Shown one piece after another: positions 32,237 to 62,450 of a stretch of DNA of 64,000 nucleotides. Both the position numbers and the translations under genes were made by a program. Numbering within the stretch: the first letter of the stretch is position 1; each line of letters starts with the position of its first letter. Below the pieces are notes generated by a model, which did no database searches, had not been told where the DNA came from, and worked only from the letters and a program-made list of their open reading frames with translations. The stretch comes from Fibrobacterota bacterium (lineage in GTDB: Bacteria > Fibrobacterota > Fibrobacteria > UBA5070): positions 18,905 to 82,904 of the forward strand of contig JADKBN010000030.1 in assembly GCA_016715065.1 (NCBI GenBank), read 5' to 3'.

Positions 32237-32353
32237 GTTGAGGGGAGTAAAATTATGCGAAAGACCTCGCTTTGTCAAGACCCTGCAAGGCGTGGCGGCC
32301 TCAAGAAGTCCTTGACGGATGCAAGATCCGGGTTAAATTTGTTAACCCTTACC

Positions 32354-32427: not shown

Positions 32428-32454
32428 CTCCCAACGGAGGCTCCGCCTCCAAAC

Positions 32455-36136: not shown

Positions 36137-36703
36137 TCATCGCTTCTTTGTCGGGGGCTCCGGAGGAATTGGAATTTTCCAATCCACAGATAGCTGCAAC
36201 CACTGGAGCGCAGATTTTCCCAATTCCTCATCACTCTCAGGAAGGACCGTCTTGAATTCGCGAGAGATATTTGTTTCTACTTTCAGCTTCTCCAATAGCC
36301 GCTGCTCAGTGAAAGTTATATTTGGATAAATTTCACCAATTGCCTCAGGATCATCCGTATAGGTGTGCAACGAAATTGTTGGATACGTATTCGGCGTCTT
36401 CTTGAACGCAACGTCCGTATTTAGATACTTTCCATTCTCCTTATAGAAACTCCTATATTCTTCACAGGGAATAGTTCGCGGACGAAGGCTAAGAAAATGC
36501 CTTACAGCCTGCCCAAATTCGAGGGCATTCACACCCTTATCATTGAAGAGATACTGCTCTGGGTCAGTTTGATCTGGCATCCACATCTCCGGAAAGCTAC
36601 ACCATCGCATCAGGACAATTTTGCTCCCGTATTTCCGAATTTCAATTGACGCTTTCCAACCGGATCTGCGCCTATCAAACAATGCAACATCAGAGATATT
36701 CAA
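36137..36703 (-). CDS. Candidate cognate immunity protein for the upstream toxin
   Basis: 188 aa with no signal peptide. Its start overlaps the toxin stop by 14 nt (36690-36703). This is the position typical of polymorphic-toxin immunity genes. No family was recognised. Confidence 0.55.
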   Translation of the reverse strand: MNISDVALFDRRRSGWKASIEIRKYGSKIVLMRWCSFPEMWMPDQTDPEQYLFNDKGVNALEFGQAVRHFLSLRPRTIPCEEYRSFYKENGKYLNTDVAFKKTPNTYPTISLHTYTDDPEAIGEIYPNITFTEQRLLEKLKVETNISREFKTVLPESDEELGKSALQWLQLSVDWKIPIPPEPPTKKR

Positions 36704-39700
36704 CTACGACCTCCACGGGATTATTCTTCCTTATTTTTGCGTTAATAATGACAGTTCTGAGGATGTCTTTTTTGGTATCATCAAGTGCGTCTTTTTCAAG
36801 GACAAGTAATAACTTCCTGGATTTGACTTCCGTCGGCAATATCCTTCTCACGCCAGCCCAAGGCTTGTATCCATTCCAATCAGACATTTTTTTTACAAAT
36901 CCGTTCAATCTCGCCTGGAATCGCTCTGGTCGATAGCCAAGTACATCCATGGATTTGATGGACGCGGCAAGCCCAGTAACCTTATCAAAGTGATCAATCA
37001 CAGGATAATTCCCTGGAGCCTCCCCTATAATACGAGCCTTTTGCCCACCAAATATGGACCATGGCATTTCCTCAATTAATCGACCTCTGCGAGTTGAGGC
37101 TTGGAGCACAGTCTCACCTTCGGCTATTTTGAAAACGGAAGTTACGGCTCGACTTGCATTATGGGACGGCAACGCGTCCAACCCTTTTTGGGTTTTTTCC
37201 ACGACCTCGGCAAGTAATTCTTCTGCGTGGCTGGCAGCTTTTGCAGCATGATAGACTTCATCCGCCGATTCTGCCGCTCTTCCAACATCCTTGAGCGCTC
37301 GAAATGATGGCACAACTGGCAGAGCTGCTAATCCAACTTGGGAATAGCCCCAGGCGCCACTAATTTTACCAGATTGGACATCACCGGTGGTTCTTCCAAC
37401 GTCATATAGGTCGCCAAAACCAGGCACCAATGTGAGCCCAATATCAGCAACAGAATGAATAGCATTTGCTATACTCTGACGATTTTGCTGATAAAACTGC
37501 GGCTCAAAACAGTCCATCCCCCCCGCAAGGGTCGAGTAACAAAGCACACTTGGATTTACGACGCCAATCGGATTATCTGGCGAATTTCGATCATTCCAAG
37601 CTTGAAGTTTTCTTGAAATTTCCTTTATCTCAGCGGGATCTGTGATCCCAAATCCCATATCCGCTAATGACTGAGGATTCGACCAATCAACATCATTTAG
37701 CAACTTCCCCGCTTGGTTTGCGTTTATTCTATCGCGAATCACCCCAAGCTTTTTGGCATTCCCTTGATTAAGCGAAAGAATAAAACCATGTGATAGCGAT
37801 TCAAGACCGCCCATGGGCAGAGTAGTACTAAATAATGGACGAGCATCGGCGAGAAGTACAGCGAGCTCCCCTTTTTCAGACCCCTCTGATACGGTAATCC
37901 CATTCGCCTGAAAATAGACTCTTCCTAATAGCCAGTCATTTAAATCAAGTACCTGAACATAATGATGGTATTTGCGTTCGACAAATGCTGCCGCTGCATC
38001 AGCAAATCGCCCCCAAGTTTCTCGATCAGCATCACCAGTTCTTCCGGAGATTAGAATTGTCGAGACAAAAGGTGAAACATAATAGGAAAGCGGAACAATC
38101 TGATCTGGGCCGGAAGCTCCAGACTGCTTTGAAATTTCCAATGTCCTATGATGTAGTACGGCCGGATCGAATTCTGCCGCATCAGAATTCGGCGTTAGAT
38201 GAATTGTACCCGGACGTGCTCCAGCCTCAACATCGAGAAAAGTTTCATCAGCCGCAATCTCATCTAGACCAAATTCGTCAACTTTAATAGATCCCGCTTC
38301 AATCTGCGGAGGACCTGGAACGCCAATCCCAGATTTTGGCATTCTCAACATTTGAGGATTTCGCGCAGCGAAAACAGGGGTCACTTTCGGAGTGCTCCAC
38401 CCCACTACCTCAGGCAACGCAATATTTGGAGACAATCCTTGAAGCTGTTGATAACCAATTTTTATTTTCGGGAAATTTAGGAGATCACGAGAATCAAGAA
38501 ATCCTGAGTACCTACCAACCTCTGATAGAATCGTTCGTGTCCGGCGAAAGATCTTCAAATCCCAGGTTTCCCTGGAAGGAATTGTGTTATCCTCAAGCCT
38601 CAAGCCATCATCAAACCATTCGTCATTCTCAGCGTTTCTTACCCAAAGACCTCGCTGTATGATATTATCGAGGACTTTTTCTGAAAGAGGGGCAACAATT
38701 GGAGTTTCTCTTCCGGGCACCGGAAATTCATCACAATCAATACACCTACAATCCTCAATTGGTGAAAGCTTGCCATCTTCCGACAGGGAGAAGAAGCCAA
38801 CATTCCCTCTCCATGCCAAATAAAACCCTGTTGCGAGATTCTTCCCTGTTGACTGAAAATTATAGTCTTGGATTTCTACTTTCGAATATCCCTGTGAAAA
38901 TGCCTCGCCTTCCGCAGTTGAGGGGAACCGAAACGAAGAAGCCGGGTAATACCCGCGATTTGGGTACCACTTTACAATTTGGGATACGTACTCTGGGTTC
39001 GTTAGGACATCAGGATGTAACGGCAAATATTGCTTAACAAACTTATTAAGCTCCCGTCCCCCATCGAATCCTTTCCCTTCAAGCCAAACGCTCGCGGTCA
39101 GAACCGCAAATTGTTGATCAGTTAATTCCTGACCAGCAGTCTCCAATGCCCCGGACACCAAATCATTAACCCAAGAGGTACGAACAGGTGTGGAACGAAG
39201 AGTTTTTATTTCCCCAGTCTCTAAGTTTGTTACCATAAGGACCAGATTATTTACGACTTCATTCGTGGTGGAGTAAACCCATTGCGGATTTGATCCTCCT
39301 GAATAGGCTGATCCGGAGCCTAACTTATAGCCTTGTAGATATTCTTTGAGAAACTCTTGGGGAGACGTAAAGTCAACGTCAATTGTTCTCGATCCACCAT
39401 CCGAATTAATCGTTAACTTGTACGAGTTAAGCTCCGGAGCGAAGCCCTCAACACGAATAGTGGTGATCTTCCGATCATTCCCACTCGTTACTGATTCTAA
39501 CTTTGCTTCATCAGCGGGCAATGACAAAATCGAAAAGTCATTGCTGTACCAAGGCATCCAACCCGCTTTTCTGATCTCGACCGGATTATTTTCATCACAT
39601 GCGATCGCTGAAGCATAAATTCTATATGCCCTTCCCTTCGGAAGAATGATGCCGCTTTCCACACCTTCTGCGTAACTGGATGAAATTCCAACTGAAGACG

Positions 39701-40049
39701 AGACATAAATCCTTGATTCGCCAATATCGGATAAATGCCCTTTTGTGGTAGAAAATTCCGCCGCCCCTTCATCCGGCGCAAAGTACAGGATCAGTTTATT
39801 TCCGGCTTTGCCATTCTCGGGAAGATCGGTTGTTGTACGCCACTGCACAGTGACTTCTCGTTCATTTTTGCCAGCGGGAACTTCACTGACCTTTATGATT
39901 TTAACAGGAAAAAAGTGGCTTGCAGAAATAGCCTCTAATTGCTCATTTCCAGTACACTTTCGGGCACTGATACTTTGAGGCAATGAGCTTATGATCGCTA
40001 AGAAAATAAATATCTGGTTCATAATTTTTGCCTGAAATCGACTCCCCAT
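36690..40049 (-). CDS. Secreted polymorphic toxin: large N-terminal region, PT-TG-like pre-toxin motif, C-terminal PD-(D/E)xK (restriction-endonuclease-fold) nuclease-like domain
   Basis: 1,119 aa with a signal peptide (MGSRFQAKIMNQIFIFLAIISSLPQSISA). LVPGFGDLYDVGRTTGDVQSGKISG (about 37355-37430) resembles the pre-toxin TG domain. The last ~130 aa carry E(37071)..PVID(36993)..SIK(36954-36962), an E/D/SxK nuclease signature. The gene is AT-richer than its neighbours. Confidence 0.75.
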   Translation of the reverse strand: MGSRFQAKIMNQIFIFLAIISSLPQSISARKCTGNEQLEAISASHFFPVKIIKVSEVPAGKNEREVTVQWRTTTDLPENGKAGNKLILYFAPDEGAAEFSTTKGHLSDIGESRIYVSSSVGISSSYAEGVESGIILPKGRAYRIYASAIACDENNPVEIRKAGWMPWYSNDFSILSLPADEAKLESVTSGNDRKITTIRVEGFAPELNSYKLTINSDGGSRTIDVDFTSPQEFLKEYLQGYKLGSGSAYSGGSNPQWVYSTTNEVVNNLVLMVTNLETGEIKTLRSTPVRTSWVNDLVSGALETAGQELTDQQFAVLTASVWLEGKGFDGGRELNKFVKQYLPLHPDVLTNPEYVSQIVKWYPNRGYYPASSFRFPSTAEGEAFSQGYSKVEIQDYNFQSTGKNLATGFYLAWRGNVGFFSLSEDGKLSPIEDCRCIDCDEFPVPGRETPIVAPLSEKVLDNIIQRGLWVRNAENDEWFDDGLRLEDNTIPSRETWDLKIFRRTRTILSEVGRYSGFLDSRDLLNFPKIKIGYQQLQGLSPNIALPEVVGWSTPKVTPVFAARNPQMLRMPKSGIGVPGPPQIEAGSIKVDEFGLDEIAADETFLDVEAGARPGTIHLTPNSDAAEFDPAVLHHRTLEISKQSGASGPDQIVPLSYYVSPFVSTILISGRTGDADRETWGRFADAAAAFVERKYHHYVQVLDLNDWLLGRVYFQANGITVSEGSEKGELAVLLADARPLFSTTLPMGGLESLSHGFILSLNQGNAKKLGVIRDRINANQAGKLLNDVDWSNPQSLADMGFGITDPAEIKEISRKLQAWNDRNSPDNPIGVVNPSVLCYSTLAGGMDCFEPQFYQQNRQSIANAIHSVADIGLTLVPGFGDLYDVGRTTGDVQSGKISGAWGYSQVGLAALPVVPSFRALKDVGRAAESADEVYHAAKAASHAEELLAEVVEKTQKGLDALPSHNASRAVTSVFKIAEGETVLQASTRRGRLIEEMPWSIFGGQKARIIGEAPGNYPVIDHFDKVTGLAASIKSMDVLGYRPERFQARLNGFVKKMSDWNGYKPWAGVRRILPTEVKSRKLLLVLEKDALDDTKKDILRTVIINAKIRKNNPVEVVVEYL

Positions 40050-40050
40050 C

Positions 40051-41688
40051 TCACTCCCCCATCTTCACGGAACGCGTCCAACCGGTGGCTGGCGAACCTT
40101 CCAAAACAATCCCACGCGTTCCGGCACTCACCGGTCGCCCCCGCAGATCCACACGATATTGCGGCCCTGCCAGTGGCGAGGGCGACGTTTTGTGGCGGAT
40201 CCCGACTGCATCCTTGGTCACTTCCATTTCCACACTTGTATATGAAGTTCCATATGGCGCTTGCATAATGCCAGTTAGCCAAGCTGTGTCACCATCTTGT
40301 TTCCCGACGACAATTGGGCTCGATTCCGGATGAATTCCATCTGCTTTCAAGGATGGGAATCGCAAAAATGCCGCAGAGGAATATGACGGTGACCATGTGT
40401 ATAATAGGTTGTACCCATCCTTAAGTTGATCTGGGTGGAGTTTTAGAATCTGCACACCATGTCCTTGTGCACCTCCTGCTCCTAAACCGATTTCCCGAAT
40501 AAGCGGAAACTGTTGTATCGGCAACTGCACTTTTAGGGAGCCATTCTCATTTAAAATGTTTGGAGCATTCGCAACCAATTCCAAAACCGACTTCACATAG
40601 AGTTTCGAGAACGGGACTGGATTAATTTTGAGAGTATCAAATGCATCCCTGAGCCAAAAATCTTCGCTCGTTTTAAACAATCTTTGGTGAACATTCCACA
40701 AATCCTTCAGTACTCCCTCACCCAACGCACCCACCAAAGCCGTCACAAACGGGAAATTCTCGTAAGGTCCATTCCCATCCGTCTCGAAAGCGGAAACTTT
40801 AATGTTCTTCAAGTATCCGGGATAATACTGCCAGTGGTGTTTCACCGCGGGGTAGCAGCGAGTGGCAAACCACACCGCCGACATTTCGTGGAAACCGTAG
40901 AGGTACACCGCATCGTACCGGTGCTGCAAGTTGTGGTAGAACTCATGCGAGATCGCCACCTTCCAGCCTTTCACCGGATCCTTGGAGTAATCGATCAACA
41001 CACTGTCCGTTCCGTTTGTGTTGACCGGATCCACTTTAACCTGGATCGAACGATTGTTGTCGCTATCCACAAAATCGTTTTCGATCAACAGGCTCTGCCG
41101 ATTGGCTCCCGTCTTATCAGAGGTTGGCTTGTCTGCATACCCCATGTAAAACTTGCCACCCCAAGATGGGACCATGGTCACAATGTCGGCCACCTCGATC
41201 GGGAACTTTCCCGCAGGCACCAACACCTTGTACCCAATCGTCGTGTCATAAGGCTTTGGCTGTAGATACCCCAACGTATCCACCCCCAAGCGCCACACCC
41301 GTTCTGCAATGGCGCCAATCGAGTCGATATTGTCGGGGTGTCCGTTCCCATCCTTATTCGTCCCGCTGCCCGCCACCGCATGGGCGCCTTCGGTCTGGTA
41401 GAAGATGGCAAAGTGCGCCGTTTCCAGCATATGAGTAGCAGGCTCTGCCGCACGCCGAGCTGCCAACGGCGAGCCTGACACCACACTTGACCCGCGCCAA
41501 TTCGGCTCTTTTTCAGCGTGGCTGGGGCAACCAATGACATCGGCGCTCGCAGCAGTCGCTAGCCCCAGCATGGCACAGACAAACAAAAGTTGGCGTGGAT
41601 TGGTCATCGGTAAGTTCCTTCCCAAGGTCCGTATTCCCGAGCGGCGAGTCTGGGTTTCAAGGTAGGTCTGGTTTCGGTTCCCGGTCAT
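40051..41688 (-). CDS. Secreted HExxH zinc metalloprotease with T9SS-like C-terminal tail
   Basis: 545 aa. HEFYH lies at 40933-40947. The signal peptide is MTNPRQLLFVCAMLGLATAASA (ATG 41607), while ATG 41688 overlaps the upstream stop as ATGA. The C-terminus is ..YRVDLRGRPVSAG... The stop is followed after 1 nt by the toxin ATG. Confidence 0.75.
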   Translation of the reverse strand: MTGNRNQTYLETQTRRSGIRTLGRNLPMTNPRQLLFVCAMLGLATAASADVIGCPSHAEKEPNWRGSSVVSGSPLAARRAAEPATHMLETAHFAIFYQTEGAHAVAGSGTNKDGNGHPDNIDSIGAIAERVWRLGVDTLGYLQPKPYDTTIGYKVLVPAGKFPIEVADIVTMVPSWGGKFYMGYADKPTSDKTGANRQSLLIENDFVDSDNNRSIQVKVDPVNTNGTDSVLIDYSKDPVKGWKVAISHEFYHNLQHRYDAVYLYGFHEMSAVWFATRCYPAVKHHWQYYPGYLKNIKVSAFETDGNGPYENFPFVTALVGALGEGVLKDLWNVHQRLFKTSEDFWLRDAFDTLKINPVPFSKLYVKSVLELVANAPNILNENGSLKVQLPIQQFPLIREIGLGAGGAQGHGVQILKLHPDQLKDGYNLLYTWSPSYSSAAFLRFPSLKADGIHPESSPIVVGKQDGDTAWLTGIMQAPYGTSYTSVEMEVTKDAVGIRHKTSPSPLAGPQYRVDLRGRPVSAGTRGIVLEGSPATGWTRSVKMGE

Positions 41689-44600
41689 GGACGCAGCTCC
41701 CCGCTTAGGTTGCCCCGGTTGTTCCTGGTGCTGAATTCCCAGACTCCCAAGTCCCGCAGCGTCCCGGGCAATACCTGGACGCGGTCGGTGAGGTTGGAAT
41801 CCGTTCCGATCTCCAGGTCTTCAAAGGCGTCAGCAGCCAGAGGTTGCGTGGTTAGTACACGATTTCGCTCCACGGTGCCGTCGGCATTGGTGCGCACCAG
41901 CACGATTCCCGCAGGTAGCGTGGTTGTACCAGAGTTGGCAACCCTTACCCACACCGACCCCACCCGGACCTGAATCCCTGACACCGATACATCCGCGCAA
42001 CGTGCCGGATGGGCCAAGATCGCTGAAAGCTTCGGGTACCTTCCGGTAATGGCACAGCCAGTGCCTTGGCTCCAGAGCACCTCGCCGGTTCCTGCAATTA
42101 CCGTGTGGCAAGCACTGGATCCACGCAACGTATCCGTGCGGCCATCCGCGTCAAAGTCGCTCCAGGTAGTTCCGGTGAAGTTTTCAGCGTTCCACAGGAC
42201 TGTCCCGTCACGGCGCAACACGGTGTTGCCTGCCACAATTTCCGGCACTCCGTCCGCGTCCAAGTCGGTCACAGACAGATCGGAGTTGGAGCCAACCGAG
42301 GGTGCCGCCACGCACCACAGCGTGTCAGCATCCAAGGACAACGCCCGGCAAACATTGCCCGCCTGGTACCACAACACATCCATGCTGTCGCGATCGCGCA
42401 CGAGATTGTCGTGATCGGTGTCACGCAAATGCACCTTCACCACCACAGTGCCGTTCGGACGCGTCAGTGGCTGGGCGTCCAGCCAACGCGTGGCTTTGGC
42501 CTCGCGGCATGGGTTGCCTCCCAGAGCCACGTGGTCACCCATCACGCGCTCCGGAGACACTGCTCCTGCATCGATCCACGCCATGAACACCTCTTCAGGG
42601 AAGTTCCGGGAATGTTGGTCCAAGGCAAAATCGATCTTCACCGATTCTCCCGCCCCAATGCTTCCCACAGCTTCCATCCCAATGAGGTCGTCAGCTCCTG
42701 CCGTGTAGCGCATGTCGCCGTTACGATCGCGGAACAGAACCGCGTAAATTCCGCCCACAAATCGGGTCGCACCGTATTGGGTCACCGTGAGGCGAGCCTT
42801 GCCCGATGCCCGCAAATTGCGGAGGTCCACTTTCACACTATCCGCGTCCAACAGGTCTGCTCGCAAGTCATGCAAGGCAAACTGGCTGGAAACCTGCACG
42901 TACTCAGGCAATCCGGTCTCGGGATCCCGAAGCTCCTTGATCTGGGGAACACCCAGGCTCAACACAGAGGACACCAATTTCTGTCCCAAACCGGTTGCGG
43001 ACAACAGCTTCATGGAATACTGCTGGCTGTGCAGGTAGAGAGCCGCCGCGTGCTGGATCTCCAGATTCTTGATCCGATGGATTCCACCTTGCAACACCGC
43101 GCTACCACCAACCGCACCCAGCCTTACTGAAGGGAGGGTCCAGTCGGGCAGGTTCCGCCAACGTTCCACAGCCACCAGCAGGAAGGATACACAGGTCCCT
43201 TCACCGAATACAAGCGTTGCATCCCAGGTAAAGCGCCCTGGCTCGATGGACCGTGTCCATTGGGTCCATGTCTTGCCTCCCAGCGCCACCTCACCGGCAC
43301 TCTTCCAGCCCAGCAGTGCCTGGGTGCGGACACCCGGAGGCAATGCCAGCCAAAGCTCCGAAGGTCTCCTGAAATTGGCCTCAAACACACGCTCTTCGCA
43401 GGTACGCGGTCCGAGCACCGGAGCAGGCATGTCCCACCGGGGCGTGCTGCCGTCTGGCAACTTCACGGAATCCTTGCTGGTAAAGATCTTCCAGCTGGCG
43501 CTTGGATCGCGCGGCACCACGGCCCGTGGCGGAGCCACAAGCACCCGGATGGAATCGATCTTGGGAGCCGTTTCTGTCCAGACCACCAGCACTTGGGAGG
43601 TGGATCCATCCACCTTGCGCACCCAAACCGTATCCACCACCGTACCCATGGATGGCAGGAACTGAGCCAAAGGCACCAGCACCAGGAAGCCACCAGGGCG
43701 ACGGGAATCGACCAAAGTTCCGTCAGGAGACTTCACCGTGTTGGGAAGACTTGCCCCTGACAAGCTGGCAGGCAAGGTGGCAGGCAAGGTCCAGCCATCC
43801 AGATTTTGTCCAGGCTGGATCACCACCGGTGTGGTCGTACCCGTGGTAGGCAACACAAACCACGAGAGTGCTGTCTGCGAAGCGGTCTGAGCATCGCGCG
43901 GTCCCGGAAGGCCAGAGACCTCGGAAGGAAGCGGATGGCACCACACCGCACGGGCACCCAAGCTGGTGGACAAGTCTGTGCTCTGGCGGGTCCAACCCGT
44001 CCGAGGCTGCCAAGAGGCATCGCCCACCGCGCATACTTGGGCAAAGCGCTCGGCACGGATCCACGCCGCTTGCAACGCAGTGTCCTTTGCACGGAACGCC
44101 AAGCCAGGCAACCAAGCGGCTCCCGCCCAGGCGGCGGGAACGGAGGTCACTTGTGCTTCGCGGTCGGCCCAAACCGGCGCGCCGGTAACAAGGCTCAAGG
44201 TATTCCCCACCGCCCCACGGCTTTCCAAAACGTGCGGTGCAACAGGAGCCATTGAAGTCCATGGCTCCCACAACTTGGAGCCTGGACGTTCGCTTTCCCA
44301 GCGAAGCTTCCAAGAAGTGGTATTGGCTTGGCTCCAGCGGAGCTCATCCACCGCGTAGCGGCCTCCCACTTGCACAGTGGCTGGATCGACCACGCGCTCA
44401 TCCTGGGCCGCCACCATCTTGGATGCTACCCGTTGGCCGTTGGCCCAAAGGGAGAGTCTGCCAGAGGGCACTTCCCACGAGGCTCCCACAAGCATGGGTC
44501 CTTGGGCATCCAGCACACCCGGTGCCGATACCACGGAATCCCCCCGATACTTCAACCACAGACTTCCGTTGGTCCGCGTTCCCCATTCCAGAGGAGTACT

Positions 44601-53900: not shown

Positions 53901-56900
53901 TGCTGGAATGCCACGTCCACCGTGGAACTGGAAGCACAATGTGATCCTGGAGTCCACTCCACGCTGAGCCTGCCGGACATTGTTTGGCGGGTCTGGCTGG
54001 ACGAATCGTCCAACCCGCTCACCTTAAGTTGGATGGAGTCCAATCCGGCGTAGACCACCGAGACAGCAGGCTTGGGCAGCGGACGCAGATCATGTCCGGA
54101 CTTCCATTCACCGAATCCGGTCCAGCGCAATTGGATCGAATCCGGTTTGGTATCGGTGTAGGAATTCCAAATGGTTTCACATCCCCAACCACCGAGCAAC
54201 CCATCATCCCAGCATTCACGGGTCGTCCAGCTGTAAGTGGTGCTCTTGGTTGTCAAAATCTGGATGGAATCCAGAGGCCCGTTCTTGGAAAGACCGGGCG
54301 TCGAAAAGAACTCCGGTGGAATCCGGTTGCGTGGGATCCGGATTACAAGATGATCGGAATTATCAACATCCGGAACAATCGCCGGAGTGCGGGGAGCCAA
54401 GCGAATCTGGACGCCGCCAGATCCGGGTGTGAGTTGGGTCTGACCCGCTCTGAGAATCAGGTCGCCCGATGCCTGCGCCTGTTCCAGGATCAGGTCTCCA
54501 AACAGTCCGTCAGGTTGCACCGGGAATCCAGAAATGCTTTTGGAGTTCAATCCAAAAGCGTCTCGTACGGTGATGGTGGCTTTGTAGAACTGGTCGAGTT
54601 GAAGATTGTTCGTCACTCTTGAGGCAACAGGAGCATGGGAGAACGGAAGCGTTGCGATATCCATCGAAGGCGCAGGAGATCCCGCCTTTTGCACCAACAA
54701 GGCATGGATATTCGGCCCCTGGGAAGCTCGCAAGCTGATAGCGTTCCAGCCTCGCAGCAACTCCATAGATCCCAATTGGTTCCAACCCTCGCGGAGCAAG
54801 GTGGTCTGAATCGACCAGGTTGCTCCTTGGTCCTTACTTACACTGAAGTCATCCGCAAGGTGGTCTGTCGACCAATAGATCCAAACATCGTAGTTCGTGG
54901 TCTGAGTGGTGAAAACATCCCACTGGGAAGCGGCGGCTGACTTGCCCAATGGAACCCTAACACCCCCCCCAGAGAGAGGCTCCTCGAAATTGACGTAGCC
55001 TGGGACACTGAATGCACCAGGCGTAGTAAGCCGAAAAGCAAGTTTCGCAGATTCCGGATTCACCTCACGATCGTTACATGTTTCTGGCGCATTGTCATTG
55101 CGGCGGCAAGTGGTCAGGGTCGCACGTGCACCATGGGTTGCCGGGACACTGAGATTCCAGATTGCTCCCCCATCGTTATTGATCGTGCGGCGGCCTCCTT
55201 CCACAATCGCAGGGCCGTCCGGATCCAGGACATGCCATGCCACAGGCCTCGAATCCACATGATAGACCACACTATCCCGAATCTTCGCGATCCGTTCCGG
55301 AGTCCAGGAATTAGCGAACCTTGCGACGGCACCGAGATAGCGGACCGAGTGATCACTGGCTTTTGCGAACAAGGCGGCTCCGGAACCATTCTTCAAATCG
55401 GCCAGGCTTCGACGAACCGTCCAGGAATCCAGATCACCAGGAGTATTGGACTCGTCATATTCCGTCACGGGAATGCGGACATCCACATTCCGCAGGCTTC
55501 CGTCCACCATCATGCTGACACCAAACAAGACGGTATCCAGGATTCCACCTGGGAATTGATTGCGCTCAAATTTGAAGACAAGGTCTCCCGTCCCCAACTC
55601 TTGCTCAACCGAAGCTCCATCCTGTGCGAGGAAATTCCTTCGGAGAAGAGAAATCTTCATGTCCGGGGCCGTGTCGACGTTCTGTCTTGAAACCGGGTAA
55701 TTCGGAGAGTGTTCGAAGAGAACAGGTCCCAACCGGTGACTTCCCGGCATCACATCCAGGATGATTGGCTGATAGCGAGGATCCTCGACTGTCACCTTGT
55801 AGAGATCGCGCGGAACATCCATGATCCGACCTGTGGTCAACTGGCCTGCTCCATAGGAATTGAAATCGGAACAGCCTCGGAACCCTCGAGTGCCACTGAT
55901 ACAAACCTGACCTGAAGGCCGTGGAATCTGAAGCAGGTTCACGGTGGTGATTCGCAACTCGAATTTCGATGACGGCACGGAAAGAGTGACCGACCCGCCT
56001 CCCTGGTTGGCTTTGTCATCCGCTCCCACGAGTTCCACCAGGTAATCCTGGCCATCGCGAATGTACGGAGCCTTCGGGTCGACAGGATAGGTGTCCCATT
56101 GGGGTTCGATCCAAGGGATGTCCACACTTGTCGCACCGGTTGGTACTGGAACGATTCGTTCATGCCGGTCGTCGCCACTGGTCAGGGACAGCCGAATGAA
56201 TTGTGGAGTTCCTGGCTCGAGCCATTTCCAATCCACATGAACGTCCGGCTCTCCAAGGCGGTTGGGCACAACGATTGCCGAGACCATCGCAATCGGTCCG
56301 TTCAGATCCAGCCCTGTGAATTGCGCATCCTTCTCCAAGGCCTTCCCGTCCGCCGCCAACGGAAGCTTGACAGAAAGTGACGTACTTCCGCGAGCCAGGG
56401 ACACCAGCGACATGCTGGTTCGATCAAGCGTCCATGTGGACGATCGACCCACGACCAACTCGTACTGTCCATCCGTCCAACGACCATCGCGGAACGATGG
56501 CGCCTGGACCACAGCCAAACGCGCGGGTACTGTTCCCCAAGCGCCCGTTGCCGGATTCAGAACCTTGATCACACCGTTCTGGAGAGCAACTGCTTCCAAG
56601 GAGTACCTCGAGAAAAAGGTCGCCTTCAAATCGCCAGAGACCAATTGTTCAGTCTTGATGCCATAGATTTCCACCTGCGGCGGAACCACCTTGATGATCA
56701 CCTCTTTTGTGGTCTGGGCACCAGCCAGATCTTTGACGGTAACCTCTACAACCACCGGCCCTGAGAATCCTGCGGGTGCCTGGAAAATCAGTTTCCTATC
56801 CGTGACCGTCACGACTGCCCCCATTGGAGCACCCACTGAAAGCTTTGCGGTCCACGTAAGGTTCAGATAGCTGTCGTCCGGGTCATCGACCCAAACCGCC

Positions 56901-58732
56901 TTGCCACTTCGTGTCGAATCCAACCTCACACTCAAGAGACTTCCCGCAGCCACGCTCCATTCGGCAGCCAGGATCTTTGGTGCGTCATTCACGGGACGAA
57001 CGGTCACCGCCAGCGCTGCAGTTGCGGAAGCACCGGTGGAACCGGTAGCGACCAATTGCAGATTCGCTGTTCCATTGACATCACTGCCGCTCAGACCTAC
57101 CCGTAGCGTTCGCAAAGCAGGATCCAACTTGAAGGGAATCGGATCACCCGTCGCCGTAGACACGGACCAAGAGAGAGGATACCCAGCACCCCGCGGATCC
57201 GATGCCAGGTTGCCGAGTTGAATCACCATTTCCTGTCCTTCGTCCAGCGCAATCGCTGACGGAGGATTTGGCGAGAACACAGGCCTCTGAGAATATTGCT
57301 GGACCAGCACCAAGTTGCCAGAGGTGGTGGAATTCCAAGCGACCGCTTCCGGCTGGTAGGAAAACCCATCTTTGCTAACCACCACGGTATAGTCACCGGG
57401 AGCAATTCCTGTCCAAGTCACTTCACCGGAGGTGGCGGACGCTGTTGCCGATCTCACCAAGGTTGCACCCTGAAGCAGTCGAACGAGTGGCGCTTGTTGT
57501 GTGGGAGCCAGCACGCGGACAGTCAGTTTGCCGATGGTAGGCTTACTGCTCTGGTCCACCACTCCGAAAAACCGAAGTGAAGGTGGTTGAGCCCTACGAA
57601 GCACCACAGAAGCAATATCGAAACTCGCGCCTGGCTCGACCCATGAGGCCATGACATTGAATGCGGATAGAGGAATACTGCCGATTCTATCTACATCAAA
57701 TACGCCAGCGGCGTTGGTGATTAATTCCGAAGCGGGAATGGAAATATGCGTCATCTCCCCATTTCCTACTGGACTGATATCTTTCAGTACAAACTGTTTA
57801 AGTGGCTCTTGATCTTTATCAAAAAACCACAAGCTCCACTTGTCCTGACTACTGACACCACCAGGATTTGCCCGGTAGTCGATTTCAACACTGGAAAACT
57901 CCCCCCAGACCAAATTGTTATAACGAAACCGAAACATGGCTCCGTATTCGCAAGCGTGGCCCAAATCATTTTCCCCACAATTCACAGCGTATGGCAAAGT
58001 GAATCCCATGTAGCCGGAATACCGTTCTCCGTAAAGCGGATTTTCAAACTCCTTCCATCCTGTAGAATAATCCCCGTTTGGATACCCATCTTGCATCAAA
58101 ACGACGTCAGAGCTTCCGAAAGCTGTATTCAGCAACGCAGCCAGATTCACTTCAAAAGGATTGGCTCCATCATACAAGAGCATTTTGATGTTGTCGTCAC
58201 TCAACACCGTGCCGGTTCCCGGTTTGGAGACCTTCCAATTCACTCGCAGCGGCACGAGCCCTTTGCCTTCCGAGACCGCTATCTGATCGTAGACCAATTG
58301 TGCGGATACCCGATAGGTGGCATCGAAGCCTGCAATCCGGTAGTCGAGCAGATTGATCAGGAGGTTGCTCTGGTAGGATCGAAACTCGAGCCTGGAGGAT
58401 GCATCGGGTACGAGCAACGAACCGGTCACGTCAAGAAATGGCACACCAACGGCTGCGTAGTTCCGTTGTGACCGGACATACTTTGTGGCGGGCAGCCCAA
58501 AGTAGGCGACTCCATTGGTGGAGTCGACGTGGATCGCCGTCCGTCCCGCCAACGGTAGATCGTTGGAGGATTTCGTATAACCACCAGCCACAGGGACCTT
58601 GCCCTGAAGCACAGCTTCTGTGTTCGAAATCCACTGGGAGAACCCGAGGTAGCCTGCCGCTTCCGGCATGATGGCAGCACTCGCCACCGCGCAAATCGCG
58701 GCGACCGAAAGGAAAATCTTGCGGAGAATCAT
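50864..58732 (-). CDS. Giant surface protein, segment A (N-terminal 2,6xx aa; signal peptide, beta-sandwich/cadherin-like repeats)
   Basis: 2,622-aa ORF. The signal peptide is MILRKIFLSVAAICAVASAA. Its ATG overlaps the upstream stop (ATGA, 58729-58732). There are carboxypeptidase-regulatory-like units (GDYTVVVSKDGF) and a cadherin-like VRPVNDAP motif. The last ~25 codons look non-native. Confidence 0.75.
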   Translation of the reverse strand: MILRKIFLSVAAICAVASAAIMPEAAGYLGFSQWISNTEAVLQGKVPVAGGYTKSSNDLPLAGRTAIHVDSTNGVAYFGLPATKYVRSQRNYAAVGVPFLDVTGSLLVPDASSRLEFRSYQSNLLINLLDYRIAGFDATYRVSAQLVYDQIAVSEGKGLVPLRVNWKVSKPGTGTVLSDDNIKMLLYDGANPFEVNLAALLNTAFGSSDVVLMQDGYPNGDYSTGWKEFENPLYGERYSGYMGFTLPYAVNCGENDLGHACEYGAMFRFRYNNLVWGEFSSVEIDYRANPGGVSSQDKWSLWFFDKDQEPLKQFVLKDISPVGNGEMTHISIPASELITNAAGVFDVDRIGSIPLSAFNVMASWVEPGASFDIASVVLRRAQPPSLRFFGVVDQSSKPTIGKLTVRVLAPTQQAPLVRLLQGATLVRSATASATSGEVTWTGIAPGDYTVVVSKDGFSYQPEAVAWNSTTSGNLVLVQQYSQRPVFSPNPPSAIALDEGQEMVIQLGNLASDPRGAGYPLSWSVSTATGDPIPFKLDPALRTLRVGLSGSDVNGTANLQLVATGSTGASATAALAVTVRPVNDAPKILAAEWSVAAGSLLSVRLDSTRSGKAVWVDDPDDSYLNLTWTAKLSVGAPMGAVVTVTDRKLIFQAPAGFSGPVVVEVTVKDLAGAQTTKEVIIKVVPPQVEIYGIKTEQLVSGDLKATFFSRYSLEAVALQNGVIKVLNPATGAWGTVPARLAVVQAPSFRDGRWTDGQYELVVGRSSTWTLDRTSMSLVSLARGSTSLSVKLPLAADGKALEKDAQFTGLDLNGPIAMVSAIVVPNRLGEPDVHVDWKWLEPGTPQFIRLSLTSGDDRHERIVPVPTGATSVDIPWIEPQWDTYPVDPKAPYIRDGQDYLVELVGADDKANQGGGSVTLSVPSSKFELRITTVNLLQIPRPSGQVCISGTRGFRGCSDFNSYGAGQLTTGRIMDVPRDLYKVTVEDPRYQPIILDVMPGSHRLGPVLFEHSPNYPVSRQNVDTAPDMKISLLRRNFLAQDGASVEQELGTGDLVFKFERNQFPGGILDTVLFGVSMMVDGSLRNVDVRIPVTEYDESNTPGDLDSWTVRRSLADLKNGSGAALFAKASDHSVRYLGAVARFANSWTPERIAKIRDSVVYHVDSRPVAWHVLDPDGPAIVEGGRRTINNDGGAIWNLSVPATHGARATLTTCRRNDNAPETCNDREVNPESAKLAFRLTTPGAFSVPGYVNFEEPLSGGGVRVPLGKSAAASQWDVFTTQTTNYDVWIYWSTDHLADDFSVSKDQGATWSIQTTLLREGWNQLGSMELLRGWNAISLRASQGPNIHALLVQKAGSPAPSMDIATLPFSHAPVASRVTNNLQLDQFYKATITVRDAFGLNSKSISGFPVQPDGLFGDLILEQAQASGDLILRAGQTQLTPGSGGVQIRLAPRTPAIVPDVDNSDHLVIRIPRNRIPPEFFSTPGLSKNGPLDSIQILTTKSTTYSWTTRECWDDGLLGGWGCETIWNSYTDTKPDSIQLRWTGFGEWKSGHDLRPLPKPAVSVVYAGLDSIQLKVSGLDDSSSQTRQTMSGRLSVEWTPGSHCASSSTVDVAFQQVFVADNSGTILFRPRLSSAKATGFGGWTDTSSGAPRLRHQWLDHSEGGGFFPLMVLPTPLASQKRAWVSFTVRNPTLTPAQVKLWTVPGPYAGQTRQAFEFRLAPVGTSGGLTPPGVIWHSGTGFAQGWHQQADELVLQPGDQELQIRMMDPGVTFRALGLRPSAITTDPAEAIASLPYVGTQGMNEILVSAPSLASGTLHGFRITATDRMGNTSSDTITVATQSSAAKFPTVGIALAPWDGSGWITGNVATASFVPDGRFTLPENAEIKAWLRHRSGTNGALTNDSTEVPVVKNQDGTYTATLTGLGAFGQTLQDFQIGDRTVLVAYVQSGSLRGNRSGIDFAILSETHPGAMTATFLDGPPNKGLTFHVRQAWQQQSGTNSITYADLELPAFRVQEDDTATNRLLLRGALVSFTQEASGLRLNNVIGGRLAAVHCKLTGTVESGCHDVARMPWTLGRWAGFLETESMTTDLTSSSWSLLIQQAELIDDAGRPSRNSAAFSLSDAGVTGGGGTQYLGLANFSKDRFWFRNVVASGDEEAFGIEACQTEIRRTASGLEFKTMGCEPNVGPFLTFPLHIQTDGPWSVVGAAFDSLDTAYHLNWTPDANPGSKWVSGSPLSRGTLQVPATNVNLTKSSLHNVSGASLWGYDVKSYSFGRSGVSNLVFDLVFPDSKLTPAQAGVSQRVKSFTGMSIVSSATIMKGSPVLQGTGISTNLVQLNLGSSLRLDDVVMWTYARKDGIGWVLTPLAATNKTLVLSKAQDANWKYTKIGTITQADDRFRFPFTSLELGAGSYVAASSSQDVKISTGGATIQAKLNIDPNDDELRIQAATPKVILDKFFTEKGGLDFKPVTVPDPELTLDPEFELADIEGVGSLGTPAQTAQYEVWVGGLPVVNAIPSGRYQIMANRGRLFVRLYRPQMALNDFGTGGLPGAPSAEVQTAVFSTDRMPVAVGAELDVPASWRDWQIPGSIGSLQLDKVYLEATAQRDPDQRNFLPGDSPFLPYCGQAGSCL

Positions 58733-61623
58733 TGGTCGAGGGCCCTCCAGCCCGAAGTGTCACGGAACCAAGTCTTGCCTGAAGACTGATCCAGATAAAG
58801 CGTTCCCAAGCCATATGTGCTTGGCGGAATTCCAATGCCTAAGACGATTTTTGCGCCGGCCTGCAGAGAATACGGGGTCGCGGTCAGCAGGATCCGAGGA
58901 GTGAATACCCGGGGCATTCCTCCCTCCAGAACGACCTCCAAGTAGAGCGTCGGGTTTGCGGCAACCGTGCGCAACAATCCTTCGAGCGCCTTGGTTTTAC
59001 CCAGCTCGATGCTCCATCCACCTTCCAGTACGGGCACATCCCAGTGCTCTTCTGTCCAGAGCTGGGTTCCACCTTTGGCAGTTGAGTACAGCCGCACCGA
59101 GAGGTCTACGGAAGTATCCGGGGGGACTGTCGCATCGGACTTGGCGAAAAAGCCTTTGACCACCATTCTCCCAACAGCAGGCCCAGGCAGAGCCAGTCGC
59201 ACGAACGCGACCCGGCTGTCGCGCACCTGGCCATTGGCGTCGGTCACTCTCACCCAAATGGGCTCAAGGGTGTCGTCCGCGGATACGATGGGCAAGGTAA
59301 GGATCGACGTTTTCTGTCCCGCGATGGGACGTGATCCCTTGTACCACTGGTAGGTCACTTTGCCATTGCCGGTCGCGTAGACTTCAAATCGAGCCTGACC
59401 TCCGAGCCGGACGGTGTCGTTTGATGTCTGGATTCCAATGGTCAAGTCCAGCGGCTTGCGCACCACGGTCAACAGAGCCTCCCGCGTGAGCACTTTGCCT
59501 GTGCCGGATTTCACTTGGCATTGGTAATGGTCGCCATCCATCTCCGCCCGGGCACGGTCGATCCGGTACACGGAACCCGTAGCACCCGGGATATCCTGGC
59601 CGTTGCGACGCCACTGGTAGAGAATCTGTCCATCACCTGTGGCTCGAACTTCGAACGTTGCGGTCTTGTCTTCGTCTACGCGCGCATCGGCAGGCTGAAC
59701 AACAATCACCGGGGCCACATAGACGACTTCCACATCGTCATCGACCTTCAGAGTGTCGCCCTTGCGGTCTCCTGGTTGGCCAGGATCCGTCCAGGCTGTT
59801 CCCGTCAGACGGTTACCCCAGCGGTCGTACACCGGGATCCTGGGATTGGAGACCAGGGTCTGCGAATTGGAGATGTGCGACCAATCGTTGGTGCGATCCC
59901 AAGCGAGCCAGTCAGAGTAGTGGACTCCGACAACGTTACCCGTGTTGTTGGGTATCGAGTTGCCTGGAGCGACGGTCACACCCAGAAAATCGTAGCGGAC
60001 CTTGTAGCAAAATCCACCCAATGCTTCCAGCGTGATCCGAGGGGCCACCTGGTAGTACGGGTCCATCACCGGCTGCTTGCCGTTTTCTGTGCAGAAGAAA
60101 TAGTCGTAGTAGAAGTCGGATAGCGCACCCGGTCCGTTGTTCTTGATCAAGATGCGGGGGCGGATGATGTTCGCGGTCAAGCCTTCATCCAGCCAGAACA
60201 CTTCGATGTTGGGCTTGTCGTCGCGACGCGACGTCATCAGCCAATCCTTGCCAGCCACCGGATTGCCGTCGTTTCCGAACACCCGGATGTAGGGCGCTGC
60301 AGTCCAGGTAGAGGTGGTTGGCAAGGCCACGTCGCCAGTTCTGTCCCATCGGAAATCCTGGTTGTTGTAACGCAGAGCCAACAGCCAGCCGCGACCATCG
60401 CCGCCGATTCCGCCAGGCGGCAGTGCCTGCGTGGAAGTGATGGTGAGCATCCACCATCCGTCACCGAGAGAAGCGATGCTGGCCGTTGCGGAAGGGACAT
60501 CGTAAGCAGAGAGGGCTGGAGTCAGGTAATTCGGTACGCGGAAAGGAAGTTTGGTGGTCCAGCCGGTTGCCAGACTCCGGGAACCGACGTTCTTGACCTG
60601 GATGCGAAATTGCGTGAAGAGGGAATCCGTCAACGCTTCCCGCTTGGCGGTCACTTGCACTGCTGTCCAAGGGACAACAGGTGAGAACTCAAGGATGGAG
60701 GTGAGCGGGCTCTGCAGATTGGGCACCAGGGTCCTGGCAGCCACGGTCATTTGGTTTCCATTCACCTGGACACGAGAGAGCTTGGCGTTTTCTTGTGCGG
60801 CACCGGAGATCCACAAGCTGTCACCCCGGAACACGGGAAAATCACCCAGTGGATCGGATGTTCCCGGACCTACCACGGAGACTTTCGCCCAAAGCACATC
60901 GCGGGGCACAAACCGCACATCCACAACGTGATCCTTGCCATCTTGACGGATGGTCGCGGAATCAGATCCATTGTGCCGGTTCCCATCAACCCAAATTTGG
61001 GCAGGAAGGGAAGCCCTTGCGCGCATGCACCTCAAATCAAGCCGGTCGGAATCCACCAGAACCACTGTCCCGGTGGCGTTGCAAGATCCTTCTCCATTGA
61101 TCTTCACAAAGACGCTGGAATACCCCTTGGCGGAAACCGGCGGCGGCGGAGGCGGCCCCCAAATCTGCTGTCCGGCGGCGTTCCATACGGTGATTTTCTG
61201 GTTGATGGCCCAAACGCCCGTGTTCCCGTCAAAGGAAGGCGAAGTCCAGGGCTGCCAAGTCGACCAATCGGACAGATGCACACCGACTTGCGCGCCATTG
61301 CCGGAATTCCACTCCTGGGATGCGGCAAGATTGCCATCGTAGTTGAACCAAAGACGCCAAGCCCCGTTATCCGCACGTTTCTCCAAGCTAATCCGCACAC
61401 TTCCGACGGACCACGACTCCACGACCGGAATCTTTCCTGTCGGAATCGCGAGATCGAACGCAGCCCGTGGCGCTTGCACAACGGAAGTCCCCACGTTCTT
61501 CAATGAGACGGTCAACCGTGCCCATTGCTGATCTTGAGGCTGGTCTGCCCTGAGCTTGACTTCAACTTGCGCGGATCCTGCCACGGCGAGCGCGGCAACG
61601 AAGGCGAATAGGCGGCGGATCAC
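58729..61623 (-). CDS. Secreted protein: three CBM3-like modules, two Ig (I-set-like) domains, C-terminal tail-fibre-like module
   Basis: The ORF is 58729-61659. A GTG at 61623 overlaps the upstream stop (GTGA) and gives the signal peptide IRRLFAFVAALAVAGSA. CBM3-like signatures include ILIKNNGPGALSDFYYDYFF..VVGVHYSDWLAWDRTNDWS. An Ig-like unit is VVQPADARVDEDKTATFEVRATG..YQWRRNG..YQCQV. The C-terminal ~140 aa are homologous to those of the 276-aa protein. Confidence 0.7.
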   Translation of the reverse strand: MIRRLFAFVAALAVAGSAQVEVKLRADQPQDQQWARLTVSLKNVGTSVVQAPRAAFDLAIPTGKIPVVESWSVGSVRISLEKRADNGAWRLWFNYDGNLAASQEWNSGNGAQVGVHLSDWSTWQPWTSPSFDGNTGVWAINQKITVWNAAGQQIWGPPPPPPVSAKGYSSVFVKINGEGSCNATGTVVLVDSDRLDLRCMRARASLPAQIWVDGNRHNGSDSATIRQDGKDHVVDVRFVPRDVLWAKVSVVGPGTSDPLGDFPVFRGDSLWISGAAQENAKLSRVQVNGNQMTVAARTLVPNLQSPLTSILEFSPVVPWTAVQVTAKREALTDSLFTQFRIQVKNVGSRSLATGWTTKLPFRVPNYLTPALSAYDVPSATASIASLGDGWWMLTITSTQALPPGGIGGDGRGWLLALRYNNQDFRWDRTGDVALPTTSTWTAAPYIRVFGNDGNPVAGKDWLMTSRRDDKPNIEVFWLDEGLTANIIRPRILIKNNGPGALSDFYYDYFFCTENGKQPVMDPYYQVAPRITLEALGGFCYKVRYDFLGVTVAPGNSIPNNTGNVVGVHYSDWLAWDRTNDWSHISNSQTLVSNPRIPVYDRWGNRLTGTAWTDPGQPGDRKGDTLKVDDDVEVVYVAPVIVVQPADARVDEDKTATFEVRATGDGQILYQWRRNGQDIPGATGSVYRIDRARAEMDGDHYQCQVKSGTGKVLTREALLTVVRKPLDLTIGIQTSNDTVRLGGQARFEVYATGNGKVTYQWYKGSRPIAGQKTSILTLPIVSADDTLEPIWVRVTDANGQVRDSRVAFVRLALPGPAVGRMVVKGFFAKSDATVPPDTSVDLSVRLYSTAKGGTQLWTEEHWDVPVLEGGWSIELGKTKALEGLLRTVAANPTLYLEVVLEGGMPRVFTPRILLTATPYSLQAGAKIVLGIGIPPSTYGLGTLYLDQSSGKTWFRDTSGWRALDQ

Positions 61624-62450
61624 GGCGCCAAGACCCAGCTCTTGAAGGAGCGCAGCCAAATCTTCGAGGTGGATGTATCCAGGTACCTGGTACCGATCGG
61701 GGCGTCAATTCCCAACGTCGCGGGTGTTCCCGCGCCTTGGATTTGTCCTCCAGCGGAGGAGATCGCATACGGCATGGCCGTCAAGGGCGACCGAGGCGTG
61801 AGGATCTCACGAGAATCAATCTTTCCAACGCTGAACTGAACGTAGAGCGTCGCCTGTTGTTGGACGACCGTCTCCAGGACTCCAGTGGTCGCTTTTCCGG
61901 TGCCGAGTCTTGCCAAGAAGCGGCCATCCAGCACCGGGATCCCACGCCCTTCTTCCACAGAAAAGACCTCGACGTAATCCGGCGTGCCACCTTCCACTTT
62001 ACGGAAGATCTCGACGACCATGTCGATGGTCTTGCCTCCATCCTTGCCGACCAGACTTCCAAAGCGATCGGACAGTTCCCCGCTGAACGTCAGCATCTGG
62101 CGACTCGGGCGCAGCACCGTGAGCGTCGCCTTGTCGGTGATCCGCATGGAGCCGTCCGCCGCCACCAGGACGCAATGGACCTTGGCTTTGTCCTGGGAAA
62201 GCTGGACGTTGGCCAAGGCAAACTTCTGGTTCGCACCCGGGAGAGTCGAGCGCAGCGTGTCGTTCACATACCACTTGAGCGTATCGACCTTGTCCGCTAC
62301 AAGCTGGAACACTGCGGTATCGCCGGCATGGGCTTGGACATCCGAGGGTTGAAGCAGGATCTGAGGAAAAGCCGCCCAGCTTCCCGCTTGAACAACAAAC
62401 AACGCGAACACAAGACGGTGAAACACCCTTTGAAAGGCAGGCATGGACAT
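61620..62450 (-). CDS. Secreted protein: one Ig (I-set-like) domain plus tail-fibre-like C-terminal module; first gene of the operon
   Basis: 276 aa with the signal peptide MSMPAFQRVFHRLVFALFVVQAGSWA. The Ig-like unit is ILLQPSDVQAHAGDTAVFQLVA..LKWYVND..VHCVLV. The C-terminal module is ..LYVQFSVG..LTPRSPLTAMPYA..GTPATLGIDAPIGTRYLDTSTSKIWLRS... Confidence 0.7.
   Translation of the reverse strand: MSMPAFQRVFHRLVFALFVVQAGSWAAFPQILLQPSDVQAHAGDTAVFQLVADKVDTLKWYVNDTLRSTLPGANQKFALANVQLSQDKAKVHCVLVAADGSMRITDKATLTVLRPSRQMLTFSGELSDRFGSLVGKDGGKTIDMVVEIFRKVEGGTPDYVEVFSVEEGRGIPVLDGRFLARLGTGKATTGVLETVVQQQATLYVQFSVGKIDSREILTPRSPLTAMPYAISSAGGQIQGAGTPATLGIDAPIGTRYLDTSTSKIWLRSFKSWVLAP

Follow-up and report, generated by a model that had tools for sequence, protein, structure and literature searches.

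The DNA examined here is a stretch of 64,000 nucleotides (nt; positions 18,905 to 82,904, hereafter the window) of contig JADKBN010000030.1 from a bacterium of the phylum Fibrobacterota. On its minus strand, from 62450 down to 36137, lies an operon of six genes, which encode a secreted protein of 276 amino acids (aa), a second secreted protein of 964 aa with CBM3-like and Ig domains, a giant protein, an HExxH metalloprotease, a polymorphic toxin with a C-terminal DNase domain and a small cytoplasmic protein that is the candidate for immunity. That the DNase toxin/immunity module is an integral, conserved part of a Fibrobacterota-specific operon is well supported by the sequence comparisons below; what is new here is a polymorphic toxin system with an undescribed set of partners. 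The features of the operon are:

61620 to 62450, minus strand: open reading frame (ORF) of the 276-aa secreted protein, with a signal peptide, one weak Ig domain and a C-terminal module of ~130 aa.
58729 to 61623, minus strand: 964-aa secreted protein with a signal peptide, three CBM3-like modules, two Ig domains and, at its C terminus, the module it shares with the 276-aa protein.
50864 to 58732, minus strand: giant gene, segment 1 (frame A, 2,622 codons; ORF and domain scan), with a signal peptide and Big_9/tandem-95 and CarboxypepD_reg-like domains.
50912 to 50950, minus strand: giant gene, frameshift 1, one extra base without a long repeat, placed by reading frame and orthologue alignment.
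49813 to 50925, minus strand: giant gene, segment 2 (frame B, ~370 codons), equivalent to orthologue residues 2602-2978 at 55% identity.
49805 to 49812, minus strand: giant gene, frameshift 2, a run of eight A on the coding strand (A8), where A7 restores the frame.
41685 to 49804, minus strand: giant gene, segment 3 (frame C, ~2,700 codons), with a conserved core and C-terminal FG-GAP/VCBS-like repeats.
40051 to 41688, minus strand: secreted HExxH metalloprotease, 545 aa from the ATG at 41688, more likely 518 aa from the ATG at 41607.
36690 to 40049, minus strand: polymorphic toxin of 1,119 aa (ORF, family searches).
36693 to 37097, minus strand: C-terminal domain of the toxin (residues ~985-1119), a predicted EC869-type PD-(D/E)xK DNase with E993, D1019, S1030 and K1032.
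36137 to 36703, minus strand: 188-aa cytoplasmic immunity candidate with a TTG start and GGAGG; its first 14 nt overlap the end of the toxin gene.

At all five junctions, the sequence agrees with what a first-pass annotation of the bare sequence had given: a GTGA overlap between the first two genes (61620-61623), ATGA overlaps between the 964-aa and giant genes (58729-58732) and between the giant and protease genes (41685-41688), TGA-g-ATG between protease and toxin (40049-40053) and the 14-nt overlap of the toxin with the last ORF (36690-36703), whose TTG start has GGAGG six bases upstream. The GTGA and first ATGA junctions recur in the orthologous locus L010 (10001-10004; 12895-12898), and the 14-nt overlap recurs in locus L009 (4865-4878). 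The claim of near-zero intergenic DNA holds in part. Packing is tight throughout, but database gene calls and the N termini of homologues favour inner starts for the protease (41607, 27 codons in) and possibly the toxin (40022, 9 codons in), which would replace the overlaps by gaps of 77 and 28 nt. Scans for promoters and terminators gave chance-level results only.

The toxin begins with a signal peptide, continues with FN3/Ig-like beta-sandwiches (residues ~35-280) and a family-specific scaffold to about residue 900, and ends in a helical linker and the C-terminal DNase. In its N-terminal ~980 residues, no trafficking or pre-toxin module other than the Sec signal peptide could be recognized, with no match in Pfam, NCBIfam or PHROG. 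The nuclease C terminus with E/D/SxK residues, which had been read from the sequence alone, stands up well: E993, D1019, S1030 and K1032 all fall in conserved catalytic columns of a 21-sequence alignment that includes EC869, and the domain matches the EC869 CdiA-CT structure (PDB 4g6u) at E 0.008. A phmmer search returned ~28 relatives of this domain, and PF21111 (CDI_toxin_EC869_like) is above threshold in 9 of the 10 scanned. Some of these relatives sit on other carriers, namely eCIS_core (P0025, P0040) and PT-TG (P0028) proteins, as would be expected for a polymorphic toxin module. A PT-TG motif had also been ascribed to the toxin itself. This claim is not supported, since Pfam PT-TG was not detected in the toxin or its seven relatives even at E values up to 10; the label goes back to a visible PG.G...TG..(S/T)G...W string and to a single PT-TG protein with which the toxin aligns weakly. 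An exhaustive search with HMMER, run against 1.84 billion representative proteins, found no relatives of the scaffold beyond those seven. A word-indexed homology search with the toxin returned the toxin only.

The 188-aa ORF has no signal peptide, in line with the cytoplasmic product proposed for it, and matches no family. The closest relative of the toxin, P0018 of locus L009, is 42% identical over its full length and keeps the EC869-type C terminus, and the ORF that follows it is 37% identical to the 188-aa ORF (E 1e-26). Across the scaffold family, the N-terminal region can be aligned to about residue 900 (alignments A1 and A3), while the C termini are of at least three types: EC869-like in P0001, P0018 and P0019, a different D..(D/E)xK type in P0020, P0021 and P0023, and others, unassigned to any type, in P0022, P0034 and the L007 protein. 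Loci L003 and L007 combine different C termini with small ORFs unrelated to that of the window; the exception is L004, in which a related C terminus is followed by an unrelated 143-aa ORF. Toxin C terminus and putative immunity gene thus vary together across genomes, the behaviour expected of a polymorphic toxin and the one the first-pass annotation had proposed to look for.

The variation extends beyond the tip. Between the window and L003, the flanking genes are 55-77% identical and the toxins only 23%. In all nine loci compared (the window, L003, L004, L007, L009, L015, L017, L020 and L021), GC content falls stepwise along the operon, from 0.57-0.62 in the giant gene to 0.50-0.55 in the protease, 0.41-0.47 in the toxin and 0.40-0.48 in the immunity gene; in the window, where overall GC is ~60%, the toxin stands at 0.453 and the giant gene at 0.572. 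As the steps are present in every one of these loci, the exchanged unit is the whole toxin-plus-immunity cassette, which has been exchanged repeatedly and in all lineages is low in GC and foreign by its composition.

But is the arrangement peculiar to this genome? Relatives of the operon proteins come from metagenome-assembled genomes (MAGs) labelled Fibrobacterota, and the six-gene operon is kept in about a dozen related metagenomic loci. The survey was anchored on the protease alignment, the toxin alignment being too divergent to serve as seed. Two other contigs carry the full gene order. On JGI Ga0136458_100093 (loci L010 and L003), proteins of 268 aa (77% identity to the 276-aa protein) and 965 aa (69%), the giant protein (55-60%) and the protease (61%) are followed at the downstream end by a 979-aa toxin relative and a 202-aa ORF; on ERZ21838769 bin.63 NODE_917 (L023 and L004), the products are 281, 971, 5,672, 521, 1,087 and 143 aa long, in this order. 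Two further contigs hold the first three genes. The giant and protease genes are adjacent in ten loci, at protease identities of 32-69%, including a Fibrobacterota MAG and contigs of 188 kb and 863 kb. Wherever DNA downstream of the protease is available (eight of eight loci), the next gene after the protease (of which L007 has two copies) encodes a low-GC protein of 908-1,258 aa with a signal peptide, a small ORF comes after it, and six of these eight proteins are homologues of the toxin scaffold (BLAST E 1e-30 to 1e-41; hhalign 97-100% for L017 and L007). Conversely, scaffold relatives with visible upstream context all lie directly after the protease. Conserved co-localization in related genomes, on which the first-pass annotation had staked its hypothesis, is what we find, and a link between the toxin family and a known secretion system, which would have told against it, was never seen among the scaffold relatives. 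One locus departs from the canonical order: at L013:3-4735, the gene of a toxin relative (94% identical to P0023) precedes ORFs of 420, 176 and 132 aa, after which comes another protease homologue (75% identical), possibly a second adjacent system or a rearrangement.

For the protease, the prediction of a secreted HExxH enzyme is borne out by HEFYH at residues 248-252, with a conserved HEM 19 residues downstream. Sixteen relatives were found, and HEFYH is kept in 13 of the 15 sequences of alignment A5, P0004 having HDFYH and P0013 being degenerate at this site; across the family, the HExxH signature points to a zinc metalloprotease (zincin). The protease is only a distant relative of described families, scoring below the curated cutoffs of both NCBIfam MXAN_6640_HExxH (NF045524; 70.9 bits, cutoff 140, E 1.5e-19) and Pfam DUF6055 (PF19527; 24.8 bits, cutoff 27), and sequence and profile searches of the PDB gave no match. 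Its C terminus carries a conserved motif, RVDLxGRPV...RG(I/V)(I/V)LEG...GW.R.V..GE (window 40051-40170, alignment A5), which looks like a sorting or secretion tag; Pfam and NCBIfam models of the type IX secretion system (T9SS) do not match it. Copy number and context of the protease vary. In one lineage (loci L007, 814-3905, and L008), giant gene and toxin are separated by two protease paralogues in tandem (513 and 507 aa), and a homologue in L001 (10001-11551; P0004, 61% identical, with HDFYH in place of HEFYH) stands alone, with neither giant gene nor toxin nearby.

The first two genes of the operon share a C-terminal module of ~130 aa (35% identity, E 6e-16). In the 276-aa protein, it follows a weak Ig_3 match (E 0.015). 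In the 964-aa protein, which has ten orthologues of 949-972 aa at 38-100% identity (the identical one from a Logan assembly), profile comparison confirmed the composition claimed for it: three mutually homologous CBM3-like modules (residues 18-165, 319-468 and 469-618; hhalign probability 96-99%), two Ig domains (~633-812) and the shared module (838-959), with a beta-sandwich region of a different type at residues 166-318. The third module (profile A4, residues 473-612) matches solved CBM3 structures (2l8a, E 2e-8; 3zqx, E 9e-7; 4c8x; 2ylk). A direct Pfam scan of the 964-aa protein did not report PF00942 (CBM_3), while precomputed database matches do. The first-pass annotation had called both proteins tail-fibre-like. 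Here, the evidence does not follow: the Ig domains of the 964-aa protein are closest to phage Ig-like decoration and tail proteins, and the matches in PHROGs, the PDB and BFVD fall on these generic Ig domains alone. As the shared module has no counterpart in any of the three databases, the label is unsupported. Fold searches with a model of the 964-aa protein were swamped by Ig matches and uninformative on the module.

The giant gene is where this genome differs from its relatives. The length of about 5,680 aa first ascribed to it is right for the family, whose orthologues are single ORFs of 5,689, 5,672 and 5,622 aa, but in the window the gene is interrupted, with three ORFs in three frames (58732-50864, about 50925-49732 and 49790-41685). 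The 5,689-aa orthologue, rebuilt from L010 and L003 on their one JGI contig, is colinear across all three, and we therefore infer two 1-nt insertions. Frame A corresponds to its residues 1-2606 (59% identity), the final ~15 codons of segment 1 being an out-of-frame tail, and frame C corresponds to residues 2984-5689 (60% identity). At frameshift 1, removal of one G from CGGGAT would restore the frame. The two frameshifts may reflect assembly error, recent pseudogenization or phase variation; either the proposed delivery machine is inactive in this genome with the toxin/immunity pair intact, or the assembly contains two indel errors. Two other 8-base homopolymers in the coding sequence of the operon are in frame as assembled, G8 at 54963-54970 (segment 1) and A8 at 36887-36894 (toxin C-terminal region). 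Domain signals in the giant protein are weak, comprising Big_9/tandem-95, CarboxypepD_reg and the C-terminal FG-GAP repeats, and the last are all that sequence and profile searches of the PDB could match. Its most conserved stretch lies in segment 3 (window 48100-49300; alignment A6 ~740-1150), is rich in Gly and Ala, contains many invariant Cys, Trp and Gly residues, and has no match in Pfam or the PDB. This stretch is the obvious candidate for the functional core of the protein.

Polymorphic toxins are expected to travel with an export or trafficking module, and the first-pass annotation had seen none here. Its view holds for the window ORFs scanned and the homologous loci: TpsB/CdiB, Rhs, PAAR, VgrG, LXG, WXG and MafB were found neither there nor in the operon, and the annotated flanks (~10 kb) and window ORFs scanned contain no genes for type I, V, VI or VII secretion systems or for Rhs, PAAR or VgrG. 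The window has a single ORF that matches, weakly, the Omp85 superfamily (13962-15215, 26.4 bits); it is 21 kb from the operon, whose other copies have no conserved counterpart of it in their vicinity. A T9SS sorting domain (Por_Secre_tail/CHU_C) was not found in the C termini of the protease, giant, 964-aa and 276-aa proteins even at relaxed thresholds, an internal CHU_C match (E 0.06) being at chance level. A phage or tailocin origin was considered and rejected: the 276-aa protein has no PHROG match, PHROG, PDB and BFVD matches are restricted to Ig domains, and viral contigs hold no relatives of the operon proteins. Nor did we find an account of this operon in the papers searched on DUF6055, MXAN_6640, Fibrobacter polymorphic toxins or Fibrobacterota giant genes.

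The genomic surroundings are those of a bacterial chromosome, as indicated by the ValRS, LigA and CysN/C housekeeping genes and two DUF4423 genes of a Fibrobacter paralogous family (1348-2187 and 26119-26952). The DUF4423 pair also agrees with the MAG labels of the relatives in assigning the window to Fibrobacterota. The ligA gene is intact, the seeming in-frame stops at 9.6-12 kb being on its antisense strand. A cluster of tRNA-Gln(ctg), tRNA-Val(cac) and tRNA-Ala(cgc) genes (32165-32527) follows downstream at a distance of ~3.6 kb from the operon, and the lower-GC stretch between the two encodes two lipoproteins (33858-34424 and 35566-36042) and a multi-pass membrane protein (35013-35504). 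Further on, a helicase pseudogene of the ResIII/SNF2 type (30692-31874, plus strand) is broken directly after its DECHH motif by a frame change, with ~100 residues lost ahead of the helicase C-terminal domain. The flanking genes differ in every copy of the operon. In L023 (3968-8591, on the 37,104-bp contig shared with L004), genes for ParA-like, ParB_N, DnaG-type primase and DnaB_C helicase proteins lie directly upstream of the full operon, so that this contig could represent a plasmid, or another kind of mobile element, that consists mostly of the operon; other copies adjoin an IS3 transposase gene (JGI 3300047160) or the HsdR gene of a type I restriction-modification system (ERZ1426827).

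How could these parts act together? The operon encodes, in a fixed order and with little spacing, five Sec-signal proteins and after them a cytoplasmic immunity protein. In the model that we propose, the giant protein, which is of fixed length, and the two lectin/Ig proteins would build a structure on the cell surface, docking perhaps through the shared C-terminal module, and the toxin would dock onto this structure with its ~870-aa N-terminal scaffold. The protease would mature or release either the toxin or the giant protein. The DNase would then enter neighbouring bacteria, with the immunity protein shielding the producer and its kin. Taken as a whole, the reading of the locus as a Fibrobacterota-specific polymorphic toxin system in a conserved six-gene operon with a proposed surface delivery structure has, in our estimate, an even chance of being right. 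The chances are also roughly balanced for its mechanistic part, in which the giant and lectin/Ig proteins present or deliver the toxin and the protease processes it, an idea suggested by nothing other than their exclusive and position-fixed association. We propose only tentatively, and regard as rather doubtful, the bolder version in which the ~5,680-aa protein, its two CBM3/Ig accessories and the HExxH protease would constitute an undescribed, Fibrobacterota-restricted toxin-delivery machine, with the ~1,000-aa scaffold toxins as dedicated exchangeable cargo and the A8 tract possibly as an on/off switch.

A number of observations weigh against the delivery reading. The sequence comparisons do not speak directly to delivery of the toxin, to dependence on contact or to processing by the protease. 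The scaffold role of the giant protein is a guess, since it has almost no recognizable domains, and in the window its gene is broken by two frameshifts. The protease is found without giant gene or toxin in four loci (L001, L006, L011 and L018), and in the two most distant loci, L020 and L021, the protein after the protease has no detectable homology to the scaffold. The toxin C terminus itself scores 25.9 bits against PF21111, just under the cutoff of 27, and the AlphaFold model of the toxin is poor (mean predicted local distance difference test score 50.7), being interpretable only in the FN3/Ig-like beta-sandwiches of its N terminus. And export by Sec alone is hardly novel, as Sec-only polymorphic toxins are a recognized category in Zhang et al. 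2012 (PMC3482391).

The main alternative takes the toxin to be self-sufficient: a Sec-exported bacteriocin of the colicin or S-pyocin kind, which would use its own ~870-aa N terminus for receptor binding and translocation, next to a separate adhesin or polysaccharide-binding apparatus made of the giant, lectin and protease proteins and linked to it by co-regulation or co-mobility in a 'competition island'. A signal peptide, FN3-like domains and a long N-terminal region would suffice for such a layout, Sec-only toxins are already recognized (PMC3482391), the exchange of the entire low-GC gene fits an autonomous cassette, the CBM3 modules point to carbohydrate binding and not to cell targeting, and the protease does occur alone elsewhere. 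An autonomous cassette, however, should also turn up at other genomic sites, whereas the scaffold family has never been seen apart from the protease and giant genes, and its place behind the protease is kept at protease identities of 32-69% while the flanks change completely. We consider this alternative unlikely, yet far from negligible. The toxin could also be an add-on, with the operon serving mainly to coat the surface or to attach Fibrobacterota that degrade cellulose or other polysaccharides to their substrate, and the toxin/immunity pair supplementing a mobile element as a selfish stabilizer or a means of kin discrimination. The CBM3-like modules would fit, as would the copies that neighbour ParA, ParB, primase and DnaB-type helicase genes (on the 37-kb contig), an IS3 transposase or a type I restriction-modification gene. 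Post-segregational killing, though, would be poorly served by a toxin that carries a signal peptide and is secreted, and the fixed position and exclusive scaffold association argue for a functional link; we judge this account improbable.

A different question is whether the system still works in this genome. The giant gene could be a true pseudogene, with only the toxin/immunity pair, or immunity alone, maintained, for instance against relatives that still fire. Two independent frameshifts, set against single-ORF orthologues of 5,622-5,689 aa, speak for decay, as does the position of one of them outside any homopolymer, and the helicase pseudogene at 30692-31874 shows that real gene decay has occurred nearby, which does not settle the question for the giant gene. 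On the other side, all other genes of the operon are intact, the A8 tract could be a site of phase variation or transcriptional slippage, and the three segments, 55-60% identical to the orthologue, run without stops for 2,622, ~370 and ~2,700 codons. If the gene has been inactivated, this must therefore have happened very recently, unless the indels are assembly errors. The chance of true decay in our view falls clearly short of even, but it has to be reckoned with. As for the delivery reading, the hypothesis put forward by the first-pass annotation survives those of its own refutation tests that were run, conserved co-localization among them, and remains unproven.

What would such a system mean? 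Polymorphic toxins are usually classed by the machine that exports them, and the interbacterial weapons of Fibrobacterota are, to our knowledge, essentially unstudied. Here, a small and sharply bounded toxin family has as its sole constant partners a giant protein, two lectin/Ig proteins and a protease, with no known secretion system in sight. Should these partners prove to be a delivery device, they would add a new route to the systems of contact-dependent or surface-mediated antagonism and would explain what one of the many orphan giant proteins of bacteria is for. Even otherwise, the locus offers a clean natural case of whole-gene exchange of a toxin/immunity cassette, with a 12-20-point drop in GC, at a fixed chromosomal docking site.

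Finally, the operon can be set beside the systems it most resembles. In common with polymorphic toxins as described (PMC3482391), above all those exported by Sec alone, it encodes a secreted multidomain protein in which a variable C-terminal nuclease is carried on a common N-terminal region, has a co-varying immunity gene directly downstream, and uses a toxin domain that recurs on eCIS_core, PT-TG and CdiA proteins. It differs in that the N-terminal ~870 aa fall outside the described trafficking and pre-toxin families, in that the entire low-GC toxin gene is exchanged and not the tip alone, and in that the toxin is fixed behind a separate HExxH protease, a ~5,680-aa protein of fixed length and two lectin/Ig proteins.

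The likeness to contact-dependent growth inhibition (CDI) by CdiB/CdiA/CdiI, as in EC869 (o11), lies in the toxin domain, which is homologous to the Zn-dependent DNase of the EC869 CdiA-CT with its E/D/S/K residues, in the adjacent immunity gene and in the presence of a very large surface protein in the operon. Unlike in CDI, there is no TpsB/CdiB transporter, two-partner secretion (TPS) domain, FHA repeats or VENN-type pre-toxin motif, and the toxin is a separate Sec-signal protein that is not fused to the giant one. Tc (ABC) and Rhs/YD-repeat toxins likewise pair a very large protein with a carrier that bears a hypervariable toxic C terminus, but Rhs/YD, SpvB, TcA and TcB signatures are missing from the operon studied here, and because an immunity gene and a nuclease are present, its target would be bacterial.

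Two further comparisons lead to the myxobacteria. The MXAN_6640/DUF6055 putative metalloproteases share with the operon's protease the HExxH core and an overall N-terminal similarity; the protease scores below their cutoffs and its clade has a conserved C-terminal motif of its own. MXAN_6640, the nearest named family, is myxobacterial, and so are the SitA/SitI systems, which may offer a parallel: there, polymorphic nuclease toxins leave the cytoplasm by Sec, have an N-terminal region that resembles an escort and a neighbouring immunity gene, and are delivered by TraA/TraB outer-membrane exchange, using a surface receptor with a lectin domain and no classical secretion needle. Against this possible likeness, the toxins described here have no lipobox, their loci contain no homologues of TraA/TraB, and the toxin is linked in one operon to a giant gene.

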